In this document: piece by piece, positions 2,087 through 54,199 of the stretch
Layout: every line of letters starts with the position of its first letter
Position numbering within the stretch: the first letter of the stretch is position 1
Source of the DNA: Candidatus Daviesbacteria bacterium
Lineage (GTDB): Bacteria > Patescibacteriota > Microgenomatia > Daviesbacterales > UBA10151
DNA length: 64,000 nucleotides
Direction of reading: 5' to 3'
Assembly (NCBI GenBank): GCA_016184225.1
Contig: JACPDA010000005.1
Coordinates: 67,590 to 131,589, forward strand
Program-made: the position numbers and the translations under genes
Notes under the pieces: model-generated
The model's input: only the letters and a program-made list of their open reading frames with translations
The model's database searches: none
Told to the model about the DNA's origin: nothing

Positions 2087-2683
2087 ATGGCGCAAGTCCC
2101 AAAATCCGTCCAAAATTTAATTGAAGCTTTTGAGAGACTTCCCGGTATTGGGCCGAAAACTGCCCAGAGGTTAACTTATTATCTTTTACACGCTCCTATT
2201 GAAGAAGCTAAGGCGTTAGCTGAGGCAGCCATTGGGATGAAAGAGAAAACCAAAATCTGTTCAATTTGTTTTAACATCGGAGAAGTTGACCCTTGCCAGA
2301 TTTGTTCTGATCAGAGCCGCGATAAAGAAATTGTTGCAGTGGTGGAAAATCCACTAGATGTGCTGGCTTTGGAGAAAGCCAATTTTAAAGGTCTTTATCA
2401 TGTTTTACATGGGGTAATTTCACCCTTAGAAAATATCGGACCATCAGAAATTCATATAAAAGAACTGTTGCCGAGATTAAAAGACGGCATTGTTAAAGAA
2501 ATTATTTTGGCTACCAATCCGACTATGGAGGGAGAAGCCACTGCCATGTATATACAAAGATTGATTGCTCCACTGGGAGTTAAGGTTACCAGAATAGCCA
2601 GGGGGTTGCCGGTTGGGTCGGACTTGGAATATGCAGATGAAACCACACTGTCCCGGGCACTGGAAGGTAGGAAGGAATATTAG
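2087..2683 (+). CDS. recR: Recombination protein RecR
   Basis: HhH motif (LPGIGPKTAQRL), a C4 zinc finger (CSICFNIGEVDPCQIC) and a Toprim domain. Confidence 0.9.
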   Translation: MAQVPKSVQNLIEAFERLPGIGPKTAQRLTYYLLHAPIEEAKALAEAAIGMKEKTKICSICFNIGEVDPCQICSDQSRDKEIVAVVENPLDVLALEKANFKGLYHVLHGVISPLENIGPSEIHIKELLPRLKDGIVKEIILATNPTMEGEATAMYIQRLIAPLGVKVTRIARGLPVGSDLEYADETTLSRALEGRKEY

Positions 2684-2701
2684 TTATGCTAGAATGTATC
2701 A

Positions 2702-3118
2702 ATGGCAAATCGTGGAAATGTTATTGGAAAATTCAGTGAGGAAGTTCAAGAAGCGGCGAGTGAAGTTGCAGAGGATGTTAAAGACTCGGTAGGCGAGGCA
2801 ATTGAACAAGGTGTTCAATTCGCAGCAGCATCCCAGCTTACTCCTCAACAACTGCAACAAAAGCAGCAAACAGACCAAAAAAAAGAAGTAGACAGACAAA
2901 AACAGCTGAGTTATACCAGAAACTGGTTGAGTAATTTAGAGGCGGCACAAGCAAAAGTAAGGGCAGAGAATAAACAAAAAGAACAGCAAAGACTGCAAGC
3001 AGAGCAACAGGAAAAACAAGTTGTGGAAATGAAAAAAGAAGAAAAGAAGAAGAGGCCTGTTAATCCGGCCGTAGCTTATGCCGGCAAAGTAGAATTTAAA
3101 AGAGGAGTAGGAGGTTAA
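2702..3118 (+). CDS. Hypothetical Q/E/K-rich coiled-coil protein
   Basis: 138-aa ORF in an operon position between recR and cysS. Its stop overlaps the cysS ATG. Low-complexity sequence, no recognisable domain. Confidence 0.45.
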   Translation: MANRGNVIGKFSEEVQEAASEVAEDVKDSVGEAIEQGVQFAAASQLTPQQLQQKQQTDQKKEVDRQKQLSYTRNWLSNLEAAQAKVRAENKQKEQQRLQAEQQEKQVVEMKKEEKKKRPVNPAVAYAGKVEFKRGVGG

Positions 3119-5567: not shown

Positions 5568-6819
5568 AACTTTATCAAACGGATTGACTTTAATTACTGT
5601 AAACCGCCCACATCTTGATTCGGTAACGACTCTGGTTGCCGTCGGCGCCGGCTCCAGGTATGAAACGAAAAAAATCAACGGCATTTCCCACTTTCTCGAG
5701 CATATGTTTTTTAAAGGGTCAACAAAATTTCCATCTGCTGAAAAAATCTCCACTTTAGTTGACGGTATTGGAGCAGTTAATAACGCTATCACAGATAAAG
5801 AAGTGACATATTATTGGATCAAGTCTTCTGCCAAACATATTAAATTATCCTCAGATATTTTATCTTCCATGATTAAAGAATCCTTGTTTAGCCAGGAGGA
5901 AATTGACAGGGAAAAGGGAGTAATTGTAGAGGAACTGCGGATGTACCGGGATAATCCGGCCAGATATGTTTGGGAATTATATGAAAGGTTGCAATACGGC
6001 AACCAGCCTTTGGGTTGGGATACTGGTGGGGAAGAAAAAATTGTTAATTCACTAAACCGCGAAGATTTTATTTCTTACATGGACTCTCTCTATGCACCGG
6101 AAAATATGGCATTAGTTTATGTGGGAAAAATACCGGCCAGTATTGAAGAAGTTGCCAAAGAGTTTTTTTTGAGCTTACCAAAAAGGAAACAATATCCCTT
6201 TAAACCTTTCAAAAAGATAGAACAAAAAAAAGCTAAAGTGGATGTTTTTTATAAAGATACCGACCAGGTTAATTTAGTTTTGGGTATGGAAGGTTTTGAT
6301 AGATATGATGATAGAAAATATGTTGGTAGGGTACTCTCTTGTCTTTTAGGTGAAGGAATGTCTTCCAGGCTATTTATTCAAGTTCGGGAACGAAGGGGTT
6401 TGGCTTACAGCATAGGTGCCCATAGCGGCAGTTACAAAGATACCGGTGCTTTTACTGTTTATGGCGGGTTGAAGTTGGAGAAAATTTATGAGGGAATGGA
6501 AGTAATTTTAGCGGAACTTCAAATGATGGCCAGCGAAAAAGTGACAGATAAGGAGCTTAAGAAAGCCAAAGAAATGATCAGGGGTAGAATTGCCCTGCAA
6601 TCCGAATCAACAAATTTTCTGGCAGAATATTTTGGTACCAGTTTTGTGTTAGATAGAAAAATAGAAACCTTTGAAGAGATTTTACAAAAGATAGACAAAG
6701 TCAGCAAGGAAGATTTACAAAATTTGGCAAAGGAGTTATTCGTCAGACAAAAATATAACCTGCAAATCATTGGTCCTTTTAAAAATGCATCTAAATTTGA
6801 GGATATTTTAAATCTTTAA
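5554..6819 (+). CDS. M16 family zinc peptidase (pitrilysin/insulinase-like)
   Basis: Inverted zinc motif HFLEH with a downstream E, 421 aa and the two-domain M16 layout. Confidence 0.75.
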   Translation: MHQIKTLSNGLTLITVNRPHLDSVTTLVAVGAGSRYETKKINGISHFLEHMFFKGSTKFPSAEKISTLVDGIGAVNNAITDKEVTYYWIKSSAKHIKLSSDILSSMIKESLFSQEEIDREKGVIVEELRMYRDNPARYVWELYERLQYGNQPLGWDTGGEEKIVNSLNREDFISYMDSLYAPENMALVYVGKIPASIEEVAKEFFLSLPKRKQYPFKPFKKIEQKKAKVDVFYKDTDQVNLVLGMEGFDRYDDRKYVGRVLSCLLGEGMSSRLFIQVRERRGLAYSIGAHSGSYKDTGAFTVYGGLKLEKIYEGMEVILAELQMMASEKVTDKELKKAKEMIRGRIALQSESTNFLAEYFGTSFVLDRKIETFEEILQKIDKVSKEDLQNLAKELFVRQKYNLQIIGPFKNASKFEDILNL

Positions 6820-16781: not shown

Positions 16782-18164
<1,383 letters not shown>

Positions 18165-18166
18165 TT

Positions 18167-19183
18167 ATGGGAATTATAAAATACACAATTGTTACTTTAG
18201 GTTCTCACTCCGCCCTGCAAATCCTCAAAGGGGCAAAAGATGAAGGCTTTAAAACTGGCGTAGTAGCTACTCCGGATAGATTAACACTTTATAACTCCTA
18301 CAATAATTTTATTGATGAGATTTTAGAAATAGACTCCTGGAAAAATTTCCCCAGATTAGAAAAAGAGTTACTTAAAAGAAATGCCATTATAATTCCACAC
18401 GGCTCGTTTGTGGCATACCTTGGGATGGAACAAAATAAAAATATGAAAGTGGCATATTTTGGCAATAAGAAGGTTTTGGATTGGGAAGAAAACCGCAAAA
18501 TGCAAAGAAACTGGATGGAAGAGGCTAGAGTAAAAGTTCCACACCGGTTTAAAAGGGGAGACAAAATAGACCGACCGGTAATTGTTAAATCATATGGGGC
18601 TTCCGGTGGCAAAGGTTATTTTACTGCCAGAAACCAAAAAGAATTCGACGAAAAGTTAAAAGGTTACAATGAAGAACGATTTATGGTTCAAGAATATGTT
18701 ATTGGGGTGCCGCTCTATTTCCACTTTTTCTATTCGCCTTTGACCAAAAAAGTAGAATTAATGAGTGTTGATAAACGTTATGAAACAAATGTTGACTCAT
18801 TAGGCCGAATTCCGGCTAAAAATCAAAAAGGATTAAATATTGAACCGTCATTTGAGGTGGTGGCAAACATTCCATTGGCTGTTAGGGAGTCTATGATGGC
18901 GGAAGCAGTAGCAATGGCAGAGAGGGTGGTAAAAGCTTCTCAAAAACTTATACCAAGCAAAGGGCTTTTTGGTCCGTTTTGTTTGGAGACAATTATTACC
19001 TCATCTGAGGAAATTTATGTGATAGAAATCTCGGCCAGAATTGTAGCCGGGACAAATTGTTTTATAAATGGATCTCCTTATACTTACTTAAATTATGATG
19101 AACCAATGTCAACAGGAAGACGTATTGCCAGGGAGATAAAGAATGCAATAAACGCAAAGAAGCTTAAGGAGGTGCTGGATTGA
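18167..19183 (+). CDS. purP: FAICAR synthetase, archaeal type (PurP, ATP-grasp, formate-dependent)
   Basis: Strong resemblance to archaeal PurP (…TLGSHSALQILKGAK, IIPHGSFVAYLG, SGGKGYF, FFYSP…VELMSVDKRYETN). Confidence 0.8.
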   Translation: MGIIKYTIVTLGSHSALQILKGAKDEGFKTGVVATPDRLTLYNSYNNFIDEILEIDSWKNFPRLEKELLKRNAIIIPHGSFVAYLGMEQNKNMKVAYFGNKKVLDWEENRKMQRNWMEEARVKVPHRFKRGDKIDRPVIVKSYGASGGKGYFTARNQKEFDEKLKGYNEERFMVQEYVIGVPLYFHFFYSPLTKKVELMSVDKRYETNVDSLGRIPAKNQKGLNIEPSFEVVANIPLAVRESMMAEAVAMAERVVKASQKLIPSKGLFGPFCLETIITSSEEIYVIEISARIVAGTNCFINGSPYTYLNYDEPMSTGRRIAREIKNAINAKKLKEVLD

Positions 19184-28478: not shown

Positions 28479-28532
28479 TTTATTAATATACTATAATTAT
28501 ATATCATACATAACCCTGATATAATTTTTAGT

Positions 28533-29447
28533 ATGCCTGAACGTAGGAAAAAAAGAAAAAAACGCAGTGCATCGAAGCAATCCGGCGTATCTTTATTTGT
28601 TATAGTAATTTTGTTATTTAGTGCGGCGCTCCTAATTGTTAAAGGATCAGGTTTTAATAAACCAATTCCGGATGTTGTCGAAATACCTAAAGAAGTGCAG
28701 GAATCAATTAAAAATGTAAAACCGCAAAAGTATCTACGAGTACCAATTCTTTTATATCACTATGTAGAGTATGTGAAAGACCCGAAGGATACAATCAGGA
28801 AATCGCTAAACTTAGAACCTCATGCTTTTGATTTGGAGGTGAAAACTTTGCAGGAAGCAGGATATAGCTTCATCACTTTAGCTGATTTGGCTGATGGTCT
28901 GGATGACAAAAGGACTTTGCCTGCAAAATCCGTTATTTTAACTTTTGATGACGGATACAGGGATTTTTATACGGACGTATTCCCGATCCTTAAAAAATAC
29001 CAAATAAAAGCAGTCGTTTTTGTCATTCCTAATTTTATAGACAGGCCGGATAATTTAACTACTTGGATGATTTCTGAAATTATCAAAAGCGGGTTAGTAG
29101 AAATAGGTGCACATACCATGAATCATACATATTTGCGCGGGCTATCTTTGAACCAAGTCCGGTATGAGATAGAGCAGAGCAAGAGCTACCTTGAGAAGAG
29201 TTTCGGCATCCAGGTTATCTCTTTCGCTTATCCTTATGGAGCTTTTGATAACGGGGCTATTGATGAAGTTAAAAAGGCGGGATTCAGGACTGCTGTAACT
29301 ACCATCCCCGGTACTTTCAGCATGGATGTTAATAGGTTTTTTCTTTATAGAGTTAGGCCGGGAGGAAGAGTGGGCCCGGATCTTTTGGAACTGTTAGAGA
29401 GAACAAAAGTTACCTCCATTCCTAAAAATGAAAATATCTTATCTTGA
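28533..29447 (+). CDS. Polysaccharide deacetylase (NodB homology domain) with an N-terminal TM anchor
   Basis: NodB motifs (TFDDGY, HTMNH). Confidence 0.8.
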   Translation: MPERRKKRKKRSASKQSGVSLFVIVILLFSAALLIVKGSGFNKPIPDVVEIPKEVQESIKNVKPQKYLRVPILLYHYVEYVKDPKDTIRKSLNLEPHAFDLEVKTLQEAGYSFITLADLADGLDDKRTLPAKSVILTFDDGYRDFYTDVFPILKKYQIKAVVFVIPNFIDRPDNLTTWMISEIIKSGLVEIGAHTMNHTYLRGLSLNQVRYEIEQSKSYLEKSFGIQVISFAYPYGAFDNGAIDEVKKAGFRTAVTTIPGTFSMDVNRFFLYRVRPGGRVGPDLLELLERTKVTSIPKNENILS

Positions 29448-38977: not shown

Positions 38978-40378
38978 ATGAAACTTAAGAATTTCATTTT
39001 TCTTATTGCAACATTCATATCATTTTTGATAGGGGCCCAGGTATCTCCGGCAGTTTTTGGTGCAACGCCCACACAGTATGGCTTTACATTTCCAGTTGGC
39101 GAGCTGAATAACTGTGCAACTGTGGCAGAATGCGGAAATTACTGTGAGAAAGACGGTAATCTTCCGGCGTGCATGGCATTTGTGAAAAAGTACAAAATTA
39201 CCAAAGATGATGTATTAACATTCACTATTGATGAACTGGGTAATTGTCAGATGGGTTCTGATTGCCGCAATTTTTGCAACCGTGACGAAAATATTACCAA
39301 ATGCATTGATTTTGCCGATAAATATGACCTGCTTTCTACCAGCAATCTTGAACTGGCGCAGAAATTTGCCAAAGCAGTTGGTTCCGGAGGTGGGCCGGGG
39401 GGCTGCAGGAGCCTTGAGCAGTGTGACCGCTATTGTGACATAAGTGAACATACCAACGAATGTCTTGACTATGTGGGCAAGAAGGATTTATTACCACGTA
39501 ATGAATTGGCACAAGTTCGCAAAGTGGCAGAGGGTTTTAGACAGGGAATAGAAACCCCGGGTAAGTGTCGTGATTACACGGAGTGCAATGTTTATTGTAC
39601 TGATTCTAGCCACTCTAACGAGTGCGGAGTTTATGCTGTAAAGGTTGGTTTTATCACAACCGAGGAGGCAGAACAGGCCAAAAAATATGGCGGAACCGGT
39701 CCTGGAGGTTGTAAATCAGAGCAAGAATGTAGCGCTTTTTGTCAACAGCCATATAATCAGAGAGTCTGCTTAAGTTATGCAAACGAACATAATATAAAAG
39801 TAGATTTTAAAGGACCCGGCGGTTGTAGTGATATTTCATCCTGCACATCTTACTGTACTAAAAGTAAGTCTGATCCAGAGTGTCAAAAGTACGCTAGTCA
39901 ATACCAAGGATTTAAAGGGCCTGGCGGGTGTGAGGATGAAGCCTCCTGCAAAACTTATTGTCAGGCTAATCCTGCTGATGCGGAATGTAAACAATATGCC
40001 GGTCAATATGGCGGATTTTCCGGACCTGGAGGGTGTAGTGATGTAGGATCTTGTACTGCCTATTGTAAAGATCACTATCAAGATCAAGAATGTCAAAAAT
40101 ACTCAAGCCAGTATGGTGGAGGATTTTCCGGGCCTGGCGGGTGTAATTCAGAAAGCTCATGTAAAGCTTACTGCACTGCCAACTCTGGGGATGCAGCCTG
40201 TAAACAATATGCCGGTCAATATGGCGGATTTTCCGGACCTGGTGGGTGTACGGATGAGGCTTCTTGTACCTCTTACTGTAAGTCAAACCCCAAAGATTCA
40301 GCTTGTGCCCCATATGTTGGCCAGTATAAAGATCAATACCAACAGCAAAATCAGCAACAACAACCTCAACCACAATAG
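38978..40378 (+). CDS. Secreted cysteine-rich tandem-module protein (about 10 modules of GPGGC-x5-C-x3-C-x8-C…QYGGF, Q-rich tail)
   Basis: Signal peptide; about 30-aa modules with 4 Cys each repeated head-to-tail, ending QQQNQQQQPQPQ. Confidence 0.6.
   Translation: MKLKNFIFLIATFISFLIGAQVSPAVFGATPTQYGFTFPVGELNNCATVAECGNYCEKDGNLPACMAFVKKYKITKDDVLTFTIDELGNCQMGSDCRNFCNRDENITKCIDFADKYDLLSTSNLELAQKFAKAVGSGGGPGGCRSLEQCDRYCDISEHTNECLDYVGKKDLLPRNELAQVRKVAEGFRQGIETPGKCRDYTECNVYCTDSSHSNECGVYAVKVGFITTEEAEQAKKYGGTGPGGCKSEQECSAFCQQPYNQRVCLSYANEHNIKVDFKGPGGCSDISSCTSYCTKSKSDPECQKYASQYQGFKGPGGCEDEASCKTYCQANPADAECKQYAGQYGGFSGPGGCSDVGSCTAYCKDHYQDQECQKYSSQYGGGFSGPGGCNSESSCKAYCTANSGDAACKQYAGQYGGFSGPGGCTDEASCTSYCKSNPKDSACAPYVGQYKDQYQQQNQQQQPQPQ
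39380..40335 (+). repeat. Tandem roughly 90-bp coding repeats inside the Cys-rich protein gene
   Basis: Recurrent ggacctggnggntg…caatatggcggattttccgg blocks seen directly. Confidence 0.6.
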
Positions 40379-40404
40379 TTAATTTCCTGCTATAATTTCC
40401 AAAT

Positions 40405-41529
40405 ATGAGCTTGAAAGTAGGAATAGTTGGACTTCCAAACGTTGGGAAATCAACTCTGTTCAATGCGTTATTAAAAAAGAGAGTTGCATTATCTGCAAAT
40501 TATCCATTTGCTACTGTTGAACCAAATGTCGGGGTGGTGGCTGTTCCGGACGGCAGATTACAAGTGCTAAGTGAGTTAGTGCAAAGGGAAGAGTCAAAGG
40601 AAAACCCGCCGCCGATTGTGCCGGCGGTTGTTGAATTCGTGGATATTGCCGGGTTGGTTAAGGGGGCTTCTACCGGAGCAGGGTTGGGAAACCAGTTCCT
40701 GTCCCATATCCGTGAAGTTGATGCCATTGTCCATGTGCTGCGGGATTTTGAGGATGCCAGTATTATTAGGGAGGGATCTGAAAATCCTGATTCGGATAAA
40801 TTGACTGTTGAAACAGAGTTAGGGTTGGCAGATCTACAAGTAATAGACAAACTGATTGATAATTTGAAGAAGGAAGCAAAACCGGTACCAAATTTACGCA
40901 ATAGCGAAAAAATGGTACCGATTTTGGAAGAGATTAAACGAAATCTTGAGCAAGGAGAGGTAACCAGTAAACTTGAATTGGAAGACCGAGACCTCAAAAA
41001 ATGGTTCGAGACGCTACCGCTGCTGACCATCAAGCCGGTTTTGTATGTCTACAATGTGGATGAGGCAAGGTTACAGGCCTTCGGCTCTGAGGCTCAGGCT
41101 CGAAGAGTTACAGGGGACAGTGGACAGGAAAATTCACTCACAATCTGTGCCAAATTGGAGGAAGAATTAGCAGATCTGGATGAGGCAGAGCGGCTGGAAT
41201 ATCTTAAATCTGTGGGTGTTGAGCAAACAGGACTGGAGCGGCTGATTAAAAAAGCTTACAGTCTTTTGGGTCTAATTTCCTTTTTAACTGCCGGGGTAAA
41301 GGAGGTCAGGGCCTGGACTATTAAGAAAGGAACTCTGGCTCCCCAAGCTGCCGGAGTAATCCACACTGATTTTGAGAGAAAGTTTATCCGGGCTCAGGTG
41401 ATTGAATATGAAAAGTTAATTGAGGCCGGATCTTATGGTCTGGCCAAGCAAAAAGGCTGGATTAGGACTGAAGGGAAGGATTATGAGGTTGAGGATGGTG
41501 ATGTAGTAGAATTTTTAGTAGGCAGTTAG
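40405..41529 (+). CDS. ychF: Ribosome-binding ATPase YchF (Obg family) with TGS domain
   Basis: G1 motif (GLPNVGKST) and a C-terminal TGS domain. Confidence 0.85.
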   Translation: MSLKVGIVGLPNVGKSTLFNALLKKRVALSANYPFATVEPNVGVVAVPDGRLQVLSELVQREESKENPPPIVPAVVEFVDIAGLVKGASTGAGLGNQFLSHIREVDAIVHVLRDFEDASIIREGSENPDSDKLTVETELGLADLQVIDKLIDNLKKEAKPVPNLRNSEKMVPILEEIKRNLEQGEVTSKLELEDRDLKKWFETLPLLTIKPVLYVYNVDEARLQAFGSEAQARRVTGDSGQENSLTICAKLEEELADLDEAERLEYLKSVGVEQTGLERLIKKAYSLLGLISFLTAGVKEVRAWTIKKGTLAPQAAGVIHTDFERKFIRAQVIEYEKLIEAGSYGLAKQKGWIRTEGKDYEVEDGDVVEFLVGS

Positions 41530-51631: not shown

Positions 51632-52045
51632 TTAAGAGTTACGAGTTAAGAGTGCAGAATTATTTCTGGATTTCTTCAGAATCGTAACCAGTATTCTTAT
51701 TATTTCATCATTTTCCTTTAAAAGTAAACCTAACTTCTTAGAGGGAATTAGTTGTGATCGGGAAAGAATCGTTAACCAATAATAGGTTTCCCTTGCTTCT
51801 TTTAAGGAGATGTTGACTAAGTGTATAAAATCTTTTCTGGAGGCAGCACTTTGAGCTTCTTGTAAGTTTGCTCCAATAGATGTTCCGGACCTTACTACTT
51901 GTGATGCTAAAGCATAACCAGCAGGAGTTTTCGGTAAGGAGTTAACCATGTAAACAATTCTTACTGCAAATTCTATGGATCTTTCTGCGATTCCAATTCT
52001 TAACTCTTCACTCTGCACTCTGAATTCTCCTGATGGCTTCGTCAA
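51632..52045 (-). CDS. Four-helix-bundle protein (23S rRNA intervening-sequence protein family)
   Basis: Family-typical sequence (…SIGANLQEAQSAASRKDFIHLVNISLKEARETYYWL…). The N-terminal region overlaps the hisS 3' end by about 37 nt. Confidence 0.65.
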   Translation of the reverse strand: MTKPSGEFRVQSEELRIGIAERSIEFAVRIVYMVNSLPKTPAGYALASQVVRSGTSIGANLQEAQSAASRKDFIHLVNISLKEARETYYWLTILSRSQLIPSKKLGLLLKENDEIIRILVTILKKSRNNSALLTRNS

Positions 52046-53300
52046 GTGTAATCAGTTTGTCTTGGGTTTGGCTCGCTAGATTTTTCAGTGTTACTTTATT
52101 TGATTCAGCTTCCTCAGGGCCAATGATCACAACATAAGGGATGCCTTTTTGGTCAGCATATTTGAGTTGCTTTTCCAATTTAGTCTCCGGATCCAGCCAA
52201 AGCTCAGTATTTATATTGTTCGAGCGAAGCTGAGAACATACCTCGATCGATTTTTGTTCAAACTCTTTAGACCCGCCTGCATCGCTATGCGAAGCATTGC
52301 GGGCAGGAAATACTGTCACCAAAACTTTGACAGTAGCTAAATCAGCCGGAAATAAATTCAGCTCCGTCATAGCCTCTACAATCCTGTCAAAGCCAAAGGC
52401 AAATCCGACGGCTGGGATTTGTTTATCTGCAAAAATACCAATTAGATTATCAAACCTGCCTCCGCCTCCGACCGACCCAACAGTATATCCTTCCACTTCC
52501 ACTTCAAAAATCATTCCTGTGTAATAATCCAAACCCCGGGCTAAAGTCGGTGAGAACTTATACACTGAAGAAGGAATACCAAACTTTTCCAGGTAAGTAA
52601 ATATTTGCTGAAGGTTTTCAGTAGGACTGAAGTATTCAATCTGCTGGACAATATAAGTGGCTTTTTCCGAACCGTAACCTTTTTCTATTAGTTCATTTAA
52701 TACTCCCTCTCTGCCAATTTTTTTAAGCTTATCAATAGAACGTATGATGGACGTAAGATCTTTTTCCGGTACAACACCTCTTTTAACCATCATGGAAAAA
52801 ATATTGCGGTCGTTAATAATAATCTTAAAGTTTTTAAATCCTAATTGTTTTAAGGATTCGACCACTGTGGCAATTATTTCCACATCAGCTAGGGGAGAGT
52901 TGGTACCCACGGTGTCAATGTCACACTGCAAAAATTCCCTGAACCGGCCTTTTTGTGGATTTTCCGCCCGCCAGACCGGTTGGATTTGATAGCGCTTGAA
53001 TGGAATGGGTAACTGGTTCTGATACTGTGCTACAACGCGGGCCAAAGGTACAGTCTGGTCGTAGCGGAGAGCCACTTTACGGCCACCGTTGTCGGTAAAA
53101 CGATACATCAGCTTATCGCCTTCCTCGCCGTATTTGCCCAAAAGTACTTCTTCATACTCCAAAGCCGGTGTTTCCAATGGTTCAAAACCAAAAGACTCAA
53201 AGACACTTTTAAGCTTATTTATGACAAACTGCCGCTTCCTCGATTCTCGAGGCAAAAAATCCCGAAATCCCTTTAATGTCTGTGCTTTAATTTTGTTCAT
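52008..53300 (-). CDS. hisS: Histidyl-tRNA synthetase
   Basis: Class II aaRS motifs and a HisRS anticodon-binding C-domain, 430 aa. Confidence 0.9.
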   Translation of the reverse strand: MNKIKAQTLKGFRDFLPRESRKRQFVINKLKSVFESFGFEPLETPALEYEEVLLGKYGEEGDKLMYRFTDNGGRKVALRYDQTVPLARVVAQYQNQLPIPFKRYQIQPVWRAENPQKGRFREFLQCDIDTVGTNSPLADVEIIATVVESLKQLGFKNFKIIINDRNIFSMMVKRGVVPEKDLTSIIRSIDKLKKIGREGVLNELIEKGYGSEKATYIVQQIEYFSPTENLQQIFTYLEKFGIPSSVYKFSPTLARGLDYYTGMIFEVEVEGYTVGSVGGGGRFDNLIGIFADKQIPAVGFAFGFDRIVEAMTELNLFPADLATVKVLVTVFPARNASHSDAGGSKEFEQKSIEVCSQLRSNNINTELWLDPETKLEKQLKYADQKGIPYVVIIGPEEAESNKVTLKNLASQTQDKLITLDEAIRRIQSAE

Positions 53301-53329
53301 AGATTAATATTAACAGGGGAATACGTATT

Positions 53330-53350
53330 AAAAAAGACCCTGGTGGGTCT
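53330..53350 (-). terminator. Rho-independent terminator (GACCC-ACCA-GGGTC followed by a U-run) about 40 nt upstream of hisS
   Basis: GC stem with a T-tract on the minus strand. Confidence 0.55.
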
Positions 53351-53490
53351 CTGGACTAAACGTACCATTTTAGTTCAGCTCCGTATTCCGACACTGACTG
53401 TTTCATTTTACGGTTAAACTTCCGTAGAGTATTTGGCTCTCGACTCCCGAATCGTGACTTCGGTACAAACGTCTTTGGTTATTAAGTTGT
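53336..53490 (-). ncRNA. Candidate small RNA or cis-acting leader of hisS (about 155 nt), bounded by a promoter and an intrinsic terminator
   Basis: A TTGACA-16-TATACT promoter (53497..53524, minus strand) and a gaccc-acca-gggtc hairpin plus U-run (about 53330..53350) bracket a non-coding stretch ending about 40 nt upstream of the hisS ATG. The RNA class was not determined. Confidence 0.4.
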
Positions 53491-53496
53491 AAATAC

Positions 53497-53524
53497 AGTA
53501 TACCACAAAAATTTCTGTTGTCAA
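53497..53524 (-). promoter_or_regulatory. Sigma70-like promoter TTGACA-16-TATACT (minus strand)
   Basis: Hexamers read on the reverse complement. Confidence 0.5.
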
Positions 53525-53611
53525 ATTTACTATCGGTTAATAAATTACCTGGGGTGGCAACCTACACCCACCCCTAGGGTGTCCTGGGTGTCCAAGGCAT
53601 GTCCAACATAA

Positions 53612-54199
53612 TTAAGCTGCTTTTTTAAGATCAATTGGCTGTAGGTAGGGATTATTTTCTAATTGTGAATCCGGAGTGGAATTTGGAAATATTGCGGGGG
53701 TTTCTTGTTGGGAAACATTGATTCCTTCTACAACTTCTATCATTTGTTCTTGAGGTTTCTCAATGGTGGCTAAATCATTAAATACGATTACCATCTCCTG
53801 GCCGGTAATTGAAACCGGAGCAGGTAATTCAGCTGTGACGGGAACTTTTTCGCCTCTGGTTTGCCAGGCCAGTATTTTGCCTGAATCTTCATTCATTCCG
53901 GAACCCGGATCCTGCCAGCCTGTCTGAAGAGGTGCATCTACTTCATTAACAATGACTGCGTCTCCTAAATGATCTCCAGCGTTGGCGATGTGTTTAAAAG
54001 GCATTTTTGCCAATGCATATGCCTTAACTGTTTTGACATACTGAGTAAAGTCATGTGTTCGGGTTCTAATTTTAAATGCCAGGGCCCTGATTATTGAGTA
54101 TTCAGTTGAGGTTTTGGTTGCTGCCTTCTGACCTGGAAAAATAATAACGTTTTCTTTCATATAAGAGCGGAGTGTAATATGAATAAGTCCAAATTGCAA
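53612..54199 (-). CDS. Hypothetical protein (195 aa)
   Basis: ORF only; a loose resemblance to GreA/Rnk C-domains was not convincing. Confidence 0.35.
   Translation of the reverse strand: MQFGLIHITLRSYMKENVIIFPGQKAATKTSTEYSIIRALAFKIRTRTHDFTQYVKTVKAYALAKMPFKHIANAGDHLGDAVIVNEVDAPLQTGWQDPGSGMNEDSGKILAWQTRGEKVPVTAELPAPVSITGQEMVIVFNDLATIEKPQEQMIEVVEGINVSQQETPAIFPNSTPDSQLENNPYLQPIDLKKAA

Follow-up and report, generated by a model that had tools for sequence, protein, structure and literature searches.

A T-box-derived RNA upstream of hisS in Candidatus Daviesbacteria, with a predicted intact tRNA-His decoding module and without the charge-sensing half

A 64-kb stretch of contig JACPDA010000005.1 from a Candidatus Daviesbacteria bacterium (the window hereafter, with positions counted from its first letter) carries on its minus strand, directly upstream of the histidine--tRNA ligase gene hisS, a non-coding RNA of about 160 nt that is bounded by a promoter (P1) and an intrinsic terminator. 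It is close to certain that this RNA derives from a T-box riboswitch: judged by covariation and by comparison with related genomes, an intact T-box module for decoding tRNA-His occupies its 5' 110 nt. We regard the RNA as a previously uncatalogued kind of T-box leader, in which the half that reads tRNA-His has been kept and the half that senses its charge has been lost. With regard to its present state, we favor, at a probability of about one half, an uncoupled relic in which the decoding module is intact, transcription ends constitutively at a terminator derived from one (T1) of the related leaders, and a leaderless hisS adjoins. A first-pass annotation of the same DNA had proposed a T-box-type leader of hisS; this stands for the 5' two-thirds of the RNA, which are homologous to the T-box leaders of his and hisS genes, but the RNA may no longer be the leader of hisS, which has an extended -10 element of its own. 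Because hisS has such an element and a leaderless layout, the fallback suggestion of that annotation, an independent small RNA, is also still a candidate.

The feature is a real transcription unit that extends from promoter to terminator (Table 1). The promoter named in the annotation (TTGACA-16-TATACT, 53524..53497) was recovered by a promoter scanner with a score of 11/12; the -10 hexamer TATACT lies at 53502..53497, and the last letters of the spacer (TGG) provide a TG extension. A single match of this kind is not above chance (3 sites vs. 2.2 expected in shuffled sequences), and an alignment of all related loci reveals that the -35/-10 pair has kept a constant spacing from the RNA. The transcription start site is inferred to lie at about 53490, within a conserved ACAAYU. 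As had been noted, there is no credible open reading frame (ORF) in the RNA: the sole ORF listed in the region (36 amino acids, TTG start, 53414..53524) has its start codon within the -35 hexamer, and an internal ORF of 16 codons (AUG at 53406) contains no His codon and is absent from locus L081, one of the related loci. A hairpin with a U-run was likewise found before hisS, although the gap between this terminator and the hisS ATG (53300) is 30 nt rather than the roughly 40 nt given before. Homologous hairpins with U-runs are also present in related loci, and in one of them (L086) the loop has changed to GUGA while the stem is unchanged. A consensus terminator scanner did not list the terminator (53352..53330), we believe because its maximal stem takes in three U residues.

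The identity of the 5' part was examined with a covariance model (R1) built from an alignment (A1) of 18 leaders, namely the window copy and 17 Daviesbacteria-like loci. The structure of the module was drawn by hand and then tested for covariation on A1 against shuffled alignments and slid controls. R1 matches the window at 53366..53475 with 117.1 bits (E = 3.7e-22), recovers the 18 seed sequences and nothing else from 630 kb, with one copy in the 64-kb window, and has no match in about 67 other hisS loci. The fraction of A1 cells that are paired is 94.1%, compared with 80.1% after shuffling and 23-41% in the slid controls, and changes on both sides of a pair were observed at 14 pairs, a number reached by none of 500 shuffles. 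Every helix of the module is backed by covariation, including the pseudoknot.

Several elements of this module correspond to those of known T-boxes. Stem I is reduced to five base pairs, so that the 76-78 Stem I positions of Rfam become 7-9 nt in this family, and a long Stem I with a kink-turn (K-turn), a specifier internal loop and an elbow platform are all absent. Its terminal loop GUCACGA is invariant in all 18 sequences and holds the triplet CAC followed by a purine. CAC (53456..53454), GAGAG (53441..53437) and UGGUAC (53367..53362) had all been pointed out in the first-pass annotation and are all present; the first of them is the specifier, and it matches the amino acid of the genes downstream (hisS in the window; HisG, PRA-PH, PRA-CH and hisS in relatives). 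Stem II is supported by compensatory changes in relatives (GAAUAC/GUAUUC, GUCCGC/GCGGAC, and GCAAG/CUUGC), and no S-turn is recognisable in it. The Stem IIA/B region includes an F-box-like element (ACCGUAAAA; CCGUUA-like in general), and Rfam places ACCGU(U/A)AAA on Stem IIA and CGUUA. Pairing in the IIB pseudoknot is kept through GUUU/AAAC, GUUA/UAAC, and GUUG/CAAC variants, with columns 158-173 reading UA in 11 sequences, GC in 4, and AU in 3. Between the pseudoknot and the discriminator lies an additional hairpin, Stem X, which is an insertion relative to the Rfam T-box consensus; it reads CGA/UCG in the canonical form of the leader and CAG/CUG in the window, and its apical pairs covary too.

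An origin outside the T-box class, such as a his leader-peptide attenuator, another riboswitch, a small RNA of a known kind, or a promoter and terminator paired by chance, is very improbable. The order of promoter, structured RNA, terminator, and synthetase gene would fit other attenuators as well, and the RNA as a whole folds with a z-score of only -1.72; however, the RNA contains neither a run of His codons (CAC/CAU) nor a conserved small ORF, as a leader peptide would require, and it combines a covarying 117-bit R1 match with continuity to the T-box leaders of relatives. Rfam returned only a tRNA-Leu elsewhere when the whole window was searched at gathering thresholds, and no T-box, 6S, SRP, or other family at E <= 10 in a 401-nt region around the feature. 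Of the checks proposed in the first-pass annotation, the covariance-model scan gave nothing with Rfam but a strong match with R1, and the comparison with hisS upstream regions of relatives revealed conservation of the module in 17 other loci.

To place the RNA among its relatives, 80 hisS loci were fetched from species-representative genomes and compared with the leader by BLASTN. Thirteen of these 80 loci share the promoter and about 115 nt at the 5' end of the RNA (53383..53530), but not its final ~50 nt. Twelve of the 13, together with further loci of HisS homologues (L082 and L083), continue in a canonical manner; among the 17 related loci in total, the module runs on into a T-box sensing half in 14. 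The module is there followed by ACUAAGAG, a variable hairpin, AAACAGGAUGGGACCGCGGGAGGUCCUUUUUU, and usually a long hairpin that ends in GGGAGG plus U5-7 directly before the AUG. The T-box sequence of these 14 loci, AGGAUGGGACCGCG, is preceded by a purine string and a Stem III that is present and covarying in all of them, and it agrees with the consensus at 13 of 14 positions. A second covariance model (R2), made from this canonical discriminator, scores 90.5 bits on L001 and L083. Full-length matches to the Rfam T-box family RF00230 were obtained for L001 (17.9 bits), L004 (27.3 bits), L007 (32.7 bits), and, with a local E of 2.6e-6, L082 (34.5 bits); each falls far short of the gathering score of 93. 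In the L082 alignment, the antiterminator is canonical and consists of helix A1 (AGGA/UCCU), the bulge UGGGACC, and helix A2 (GCGGG/CUCGU).

These leaders are T-boxes. The long hairpin (T2) contains the 3' strands of helices A1 and A2 in its own 5' strand, which identifies it as the canonical T-box terminator. Such hairpins have energies of -26 to -42 kcal/mol, are followed by U5-7, and sequester a Shine-Dalgarno (SD) sequence (GGGAGG) within the 3' strand. Inside the A2 loop lies T1, a compact hairpin with a U-run (GGGACC/GGUCCU) whose 5' strand is the T-box bulge itself, so that two hairpin/U-tract terminators stand in series (L001 1770..1940; also L004, L013, L028, and others); T1 is the only terminator in L008, and L007 also lacks T2. 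Behind the canonical leaders lie genes for HisG, PRA-PH, PRA-CH (hisG, hisE, and hisI), an M20 peptidase, and a protein of the CntK_N type, and hisS comes at the end. The UGGG of AGGAUGGGACCGCG is complementary to a CCCA 3' end, and such an end is expected for bacterial tRNA-His, whose identity depends on G-1:C73. The discriminator base itself could not be read, as the 88 loci scanned contain no tRNA genes and the window only a tRNA-Leu. Apart from the leaders, we observed that the operons run by these T-boxes (L001 1882..2990; L082 1328..3008; L005, L006, L008, L019, and L021) encode only the first steps of histidine biosynthesis, that HisG, PRA-PH, and PRA-CH are sometimes fused, and that a CntK_N-type protein, which is histidine-racemase-like, or an M20 peptidase accompanies them ahead of hisS; such a partial pathway is odd for organisms that are thought to be without amino-acid biosynthesis.

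The window RNA departs from this plan after the module. It has no Stem III, no A1 strand, and no UGG of the bulge, T2 lacks its 3' strand, and none of the his genes follows. With filters off, R2 reaches 7.2 bits on the window, in an alignment in which AAACAGGAU (the A1 strand and the U of UGG) is deleted and the window terminator is aligned to T1, of which it is the homologue. The failure of the first-pass annotation to fit a canonical antiterminator is therefore borne out, given the 90.5 bits seen in relatives. The best T-box-like string in the window, AAAAUGGUACGUUU, agrees with the consensus AGGGUGGNACCGCG (bulge UGGNACC) at 7 of 14 positions, and where the relatives match the Rfam model below its gathering score of 93 bits, the window copy does not match it at all (E <= 10). 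In place of Stem III with its conserved purines, only AAUGGUAC, which resembles the loop and 3' strand of that stem, is left. The UGGUAC within it is, on sequence comparison, probably such a remnant (cf. AGUAAUGGUAC in L019) and not the T-box bulge that it might have been taken for. Stem III and the bulge have been replaced by a hairpin (Z) with the loop AUGGUACG, and downstream AAUACGUAUUCCCCUGUUAAUAUUA is similar to the start of the 5' strand of T2.

The variant form is also found before hisS in L081 (= L085) and before a short, 304-amino-acid HisS in L086. The 3' half shared by the three carriers runs from AACAGUCAGUGUCGGAAUACGGAGCUGAACUAAAAUGGUAYGUUUAGUCCAGAGACCC through the terminator loop to GGGUCUUUUUU, and the segment that replaces the sensing half is nearly invariant, 45 nt in length, and contains a terminator only. 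All three carriers fold into Stem X, hairpin Z (loop AUGGUAYG), and the terminator; hairpin Z is the same in the three apart from a C/U difference, and has no covariation support with so few sequences. Folding of the three carriers revealed no pairing that competes with the terminator, and hence no antiterminator. Candidates for one, GUUU(G/U)U/AGAGAC, GGUACGU with a downstream ACGUAUU, and CAGGG/CCCUG, were discarded as weak, as lying downstream of the U-tract, or as not kept in all three. A closing helix GUACC/GGUAC in the minimum free energy (MFE) structure of the window was also rejected, since it is not conserved in L081 or L086, as was the idea that the ACCA terminator loop mimics a tRNA 3' end and pairs with UGGU, since L086 has GUGA in that loop. 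Yet another, third form of the leader occurs in L012 (2531..2700), where an intact module is followed by ACUAA-UCCUCGUCAAGGAGC-UUGGGUUUAGUUUUUG, a 90-amino-acid ORF of no known function, and hisS; neither a T-box sequence nor a clear terminator was found there, and ACUAA...UGG...GUUUAGU is common to this form and that of the window.

hisS seems to have gained a promoter of its own, as suggested by a candidate extended -10 element (P2) just upstream of its ATG, which has no SD. TGnTAATAT also stands before hisS in L081 (7-nt gap) and L086 (TGCTAATAT, 6-nt gap), and L092, a relative of L086 that has no leader, carries TATAAT-N6-ATG in the corresponding position. Of 48 ORF starts in the window, 7 have a TGnTAnnnT that ends 5-8 nt upstream, compared with 0.39 +/- 0.62 in shuffled sequences (maximum of 4 in 500); the motif precedes 1.1% of all ATG triplets of the window, and its enrichment at ORF starts is approximately 13-fold. 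Other genes of the window carry an SD instead, as do the T2-controlled genes of relatives. Leaderless transcription from an extended -10 element thus appears to be common in this genome, and hisS conforms to the pattern, with TGnTAnnnT 5-8 nt upstream and no SD. With its own extended -10 element, hisS would not need read-through of the terminator, and the upstream RNA would therefore be a separate unit. As an observation in its own right, leaderless mRNAs may be widespread in this genome: many first genes have TGnTAnnnT, sometimes with a full TTGACA, 5-8 nt before a start without an SD (examples in the window are 18125..18169, 2670..2704, 28505..28535, and 40375..40407), and operon-internal genes of the window use GGAGG-type SDs. 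A search of the literature on leaderless mRNAs in Patescibacteria found nothing relevant.

Taken together, these data are compatible with the following course of events, which makes up the uncoupled relic. The RNA descends from a tRNA-His T-box riboswitch; deletions would have brought what was left of the T2 5' strand next to the start of hisS, and the junction may have created the extended -10 element TGTTAATAT 6 nt before an ATG without an SD. hisS would now be transcribed alone as a leaderless mRNA, and with hisS leaderless on its own promoter, the upstream RNA would end constitutively at its terminator. The relic can probably still bind the anticodon of tRNA-His, and would no longer read aminoacylation.

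A number of observations weigh against a mere relic. P2 is a predicted promoter, recognized by motif match. The three carriers do not form a clade by HisS identity, the proteins being only 48-76% identical (76% between the window and L081 and 83% between L081 and L001, with L086 about 48% identical to all others), and the 3' half has nonetheless only about one substitution in 69 nt (a C/U change) once the terminator loop, with its four differing bases, is set aside. The decoding modules, by comparison, are about 20% divergent among the carriers, and their changes include compensatory ones and clean insertions of hairpins (an expanded Stem II in L081 and an inserted hairpin in L086); a nearly invariant 3' half beside diverging modules suggests selection on the RNA. 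P1 is near-consensus in all three, whereas a useless, highly transcribed RNA should lose it. The string common to L012 and the window is a further hint that hairpin Z has been retained as a motif together with its UGG. It is thus possible, though we would put it a little below an even chance, that the 3' half is under selection and that the module without a T-box sequence is functional, either as a new, minimal kind of sensor of the acceptor end (UGG in the loop of hairpin Z, adjacent to a terminator) or as an autonomous small RNA that binds tRNA-His and has a leaderless hisS as its neighbor. These readings are kept open because the 3' half and P1 are strikingly conserved, and a minimal pocket for the tRNA 3' end is conceivable because of the motif shared with L012.

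On the other hand, recombination at this locus is real and could equally explain the identity of the 3' halves, so that neither selection nor decay is proven. Positions 53650..53411 of the window are identical to L001 at 239 of 240 positions, and 53410..53261 are identical to L081 at 144 of 150, while flanking coding DNA is mostly 65-85% identical. This mosaic points to recombination between lineages and is less likely to be an assembly chimera. From the upstream ORF to P1, about 85 nt (53530..53650 of the window, minus strand; 1500..1584 of L001) are themselves 100% identical to L001 and absent from L081; this segment reads ...GGACAUGCCUUGGACACCCAGGACACCCUAGGGGUGGGUGUAGGUUGCCACCCCAGG... and has a repeated GGACAC and an ACACCC/GGGUGU inverted repeat. 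With regard to the distribution of the variant form, a metagenome scan with one of its 20-mers detected only L085 and L086, two scans of viral contigs found nothing real, and the contigs of proteins P0015, P0006, P0002, P0012, and P0008 either show a canonical leader or do not reach far enough upstream. Proteins related to the short HisS of L086 (79-87% identity) are encoded without a leader.

If the RNA still worked as a tRNA-His attenuator, a reduced, non-canonical discriminator would have to replace the antiterminator: tRNA-His would dock on the decoding module, and the free CCA of its 3' end would pair with UGG(U) of the 8-nt hairpin Z loop, in a pocket resembling A1 plus bulge without A2, termination 2 nt downstream would be lowered, and hisS transcripts from read-through would be added to basal ones. 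The intact decoding module in all carriers, the near-invariance of the 3' half in divergent genomes, and the UGG directly after an A-rich purine string, enclosed by ACUAA/UUAGU both here and in L012 (as UGGG), would agree with this, as would the canonical relatives, which are already compact in that the bulge forms the 5' strand of T1 and L008 manages with T1 only. Nevertheless, no structure that is mutually exclusive with the terminator was found, UGGU mismatches a C73 discriminator where relatives use UGGG, and there is no ACC of the bulge, no Stem III, and no RAG/purine context, with AAUGGUAC more simply explained as a remnant of Stem III. Moreover, a read-through mRNA would hold the hisS AUG internally without an SD, and close relatives of L086 do without any leader. 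We consider such an attenuator unlikely.

Slightly more doubtful is a repurposed, autonomous small RNA, in which the module would be kept for binding tRNA-His or for acting on the adjacent hisS promoter. SreA and SreB of Listeria, which are terminated S-adenosylmethionine (SAM) riboswitch fragments that act as small RNAs, offer a parallel: the window RNA likewise has an aptamer-type domain, its own promoter, an intrinsic terminator, and separation from the expression of the downstream gene, but its domain is one for a tRNA ligand. The self-contained unit from P1 to the terminator with a separate promoter behind it and the consensus P1 kept in all carriers fit this idea, and the presence of the unit before the very different 304-amino-acid HisS of L086, whose nearest relatives are without it, suggests transfer and retention. 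However, there is no evidence of a trans target, only three carriers are known, and sequestration of tRNA-His would be costly; the unit also occurs only at the hisS locus, a position for which a cis role or inheritance and recombination would account. On balance, the uncoupled relic is the reading that we retain.

Table 1. Coordinates of the features of the hisS upstream region in the window
Feature	Position	Strand	Evidence
Promoter P1: -35 TTGACA (53524..53519), 16-nt spacer, extended -10 TGG-TATACT (53505..53497)	53497..53524	minus	promoter scanner; kept in related leaders
T-box-type decoding module and Stem X	53366..53475	minus	R1 match, covariation
Base helix P0, 3 bp (53473..53471 with 53444..53442)		minus	covarying columns 5-7 with 103-105
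Ultrashort Stem I CCGAA/UUCGG (5 bp), 7-nt terminal loop GUCACGA	53447..53463	minus	covarying columns 53-57 with 65-69
Specifier CAC (His) in Stem I loop	53456..53454	minus	invariant loop
Stem II hairpin GAGAG-CCAAAUA-CUCU, A-rich loop	53426..53441	minus	compensatory changes
Stem IIA (CGG/CCG) and IIB pseudoknot (GUUU 53419..53416 / AAAC 53403..53400)	53400..53424	minus	covariation
Stem X UCAG-UG-UCG-GAAUA-CGG-AG-CUGA	53375..53397	minus	covariation
Hairpin Z ACUAAA/UUUAGU, loop AUGGUACG, in place of Stem III and T-box bulge	53355..53374	minus	RNAfold of L081, L086
Intrinsic terminator: 8-bp hairpin AGAGACCC-ACCA-GGGUCUUU and U-run (U6)	53330..53352	minus	RNAfold MFE
Probable remnant of T2 5' strand AAUACGUAUUCCCCUGUU..., holding candidate promoter P2	53307..53329	minus	alignment
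Candidate promoter P2, extended -10 TG-T-TAATAT (TGTTAATAT)	53315..53307	minus	motif match, 6 nt before hisS ATG
hisS, histidine--tRNA ligase, 430 aa	52008..53300	minus	ORF; Pfam tRNA-synt_His, HGTP_anticodon

Some further observations concern the neighborhood of the RNA. The window HisS is 100% identical to P0001 (a Candidatus Daviesbacteria histidine--tRNA ligase), the next best protein being 78% identical, and its C-terminus is about 16 amino acids longer than those of relatives. The 3' end of hisS overlaps by 38 nt with a gene for a 23S rRNA-intervening-sequence protein (PF05635, 82 bits; 51632..52045, minus strand). The ORF upstream of the RNA (195 amino acids, 53612..54199, minus strand) has no Pfam match; it also adjoins the leader in L001 and L081, and its C-terminus, ...ENNPYLQPIDLKKAA, is shared. 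A large family of HisRS-like proteins of about 300 amino acids (L086 1773..2687; P0121-P0240) lacks the anticodon-binding domain and keeps GGGRYD-type motifs. In many Daviesbacteria and Microgenomates, these proteins occupy the position of hisS (NTP-transferase/hisS/EamA/L31/RF1), and they are inconsistently named HisZ or histidine--tRNA ligase. Elsewhere in the window, R2 has a weak match at 6151..6250 on the plus strand (16.8 bits, E 0.11), which is AT-rich, is without the T-box core, and most likely reflects chance.

Compared with the T-boxes of RF00230 (such as those of Bacillus subtilis tyrS, glyQS, and hisS-aspS), the family has in common the location before synthetase or amino-acid genes, a specifier (CAC) that matches the pathway and has the usual C in third position followed by a purine, Stem II, the IIA/B pseudoknot, and the F-box. 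The relatives also have the purine string, Stem III, the T-box sequence, the antiterminator (A1, UGGNACC, and A2) opposed to a terminator, and the transcriptional read-out. In contrast to RF00230, Stem I is a 5-bp helix with the codon in a 7-nt terminal loop, the GA motif of the K-turn, the S-turn, and the elbow platform are absent, Stem X is extra, relatives form a second terminator (T1) from the bulge, and scores are far below gathering; the window copy additionally has no T-box sequence, Stem III, or antiterminator. Comparable in this respect are the T-boxes of Actinobacteria with an ultrashort or intermediate Stem I, such as those of ileS in Mycobacterium tuberculosis and Nocardia farcinica (Sherwood et al. 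2015, cited in the review PMC7583486). According to that review, regulation is translational where Stem I is short, and a long Stem I is generally required for transcriptional T-boxes; the short-Stem-I model of TBDB was used on Actinobacteria only. As in the actinobacterial examples, Stem I is cut to the specifier region without an elbow platform, decoding is left to Stem II and IIA/B, and the competing hairpin of relatives holds an SD in its 3' strand. Unlike them, the family has hairpin and U-run terminators, no S-turn in Stem II, His as the amino acid, other genes, and a host in the Patescibacteria (candidate phyla radiation, CPR). Within the family, relatives have the GGGAGG SD in T2 as well as U5-7 tracts, and the window has a terminator without an SD.

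In the literature library searched, no paper on T-boxes in CPR/Patescibacteria was found, and the family described here takes T-box riboswitches into the CPR (Daviesbacteria), at scores below the Rfam threshold. Because the relatives combine an ultrashort Stem I, with the specifier in its terminal loop, with terminators, against the rule given in the review, they provide a natural test of minimal co-transcriptional tRNA sensing, and they also place a terminator within the antiterminator loop, with the tRNA-binding bulge as one of its strands. The window copy may represent what becomes of such a switch after the regulated operon has been deleted, when the decoding half stays, the sensing half is replaced, and the synthetase gains a leaderless promoter. 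Whether it is a fossil, a new sensor, or a tRNA-binding small RNA, any of these outcomes would inform on how riboswitches decay or are re-used.

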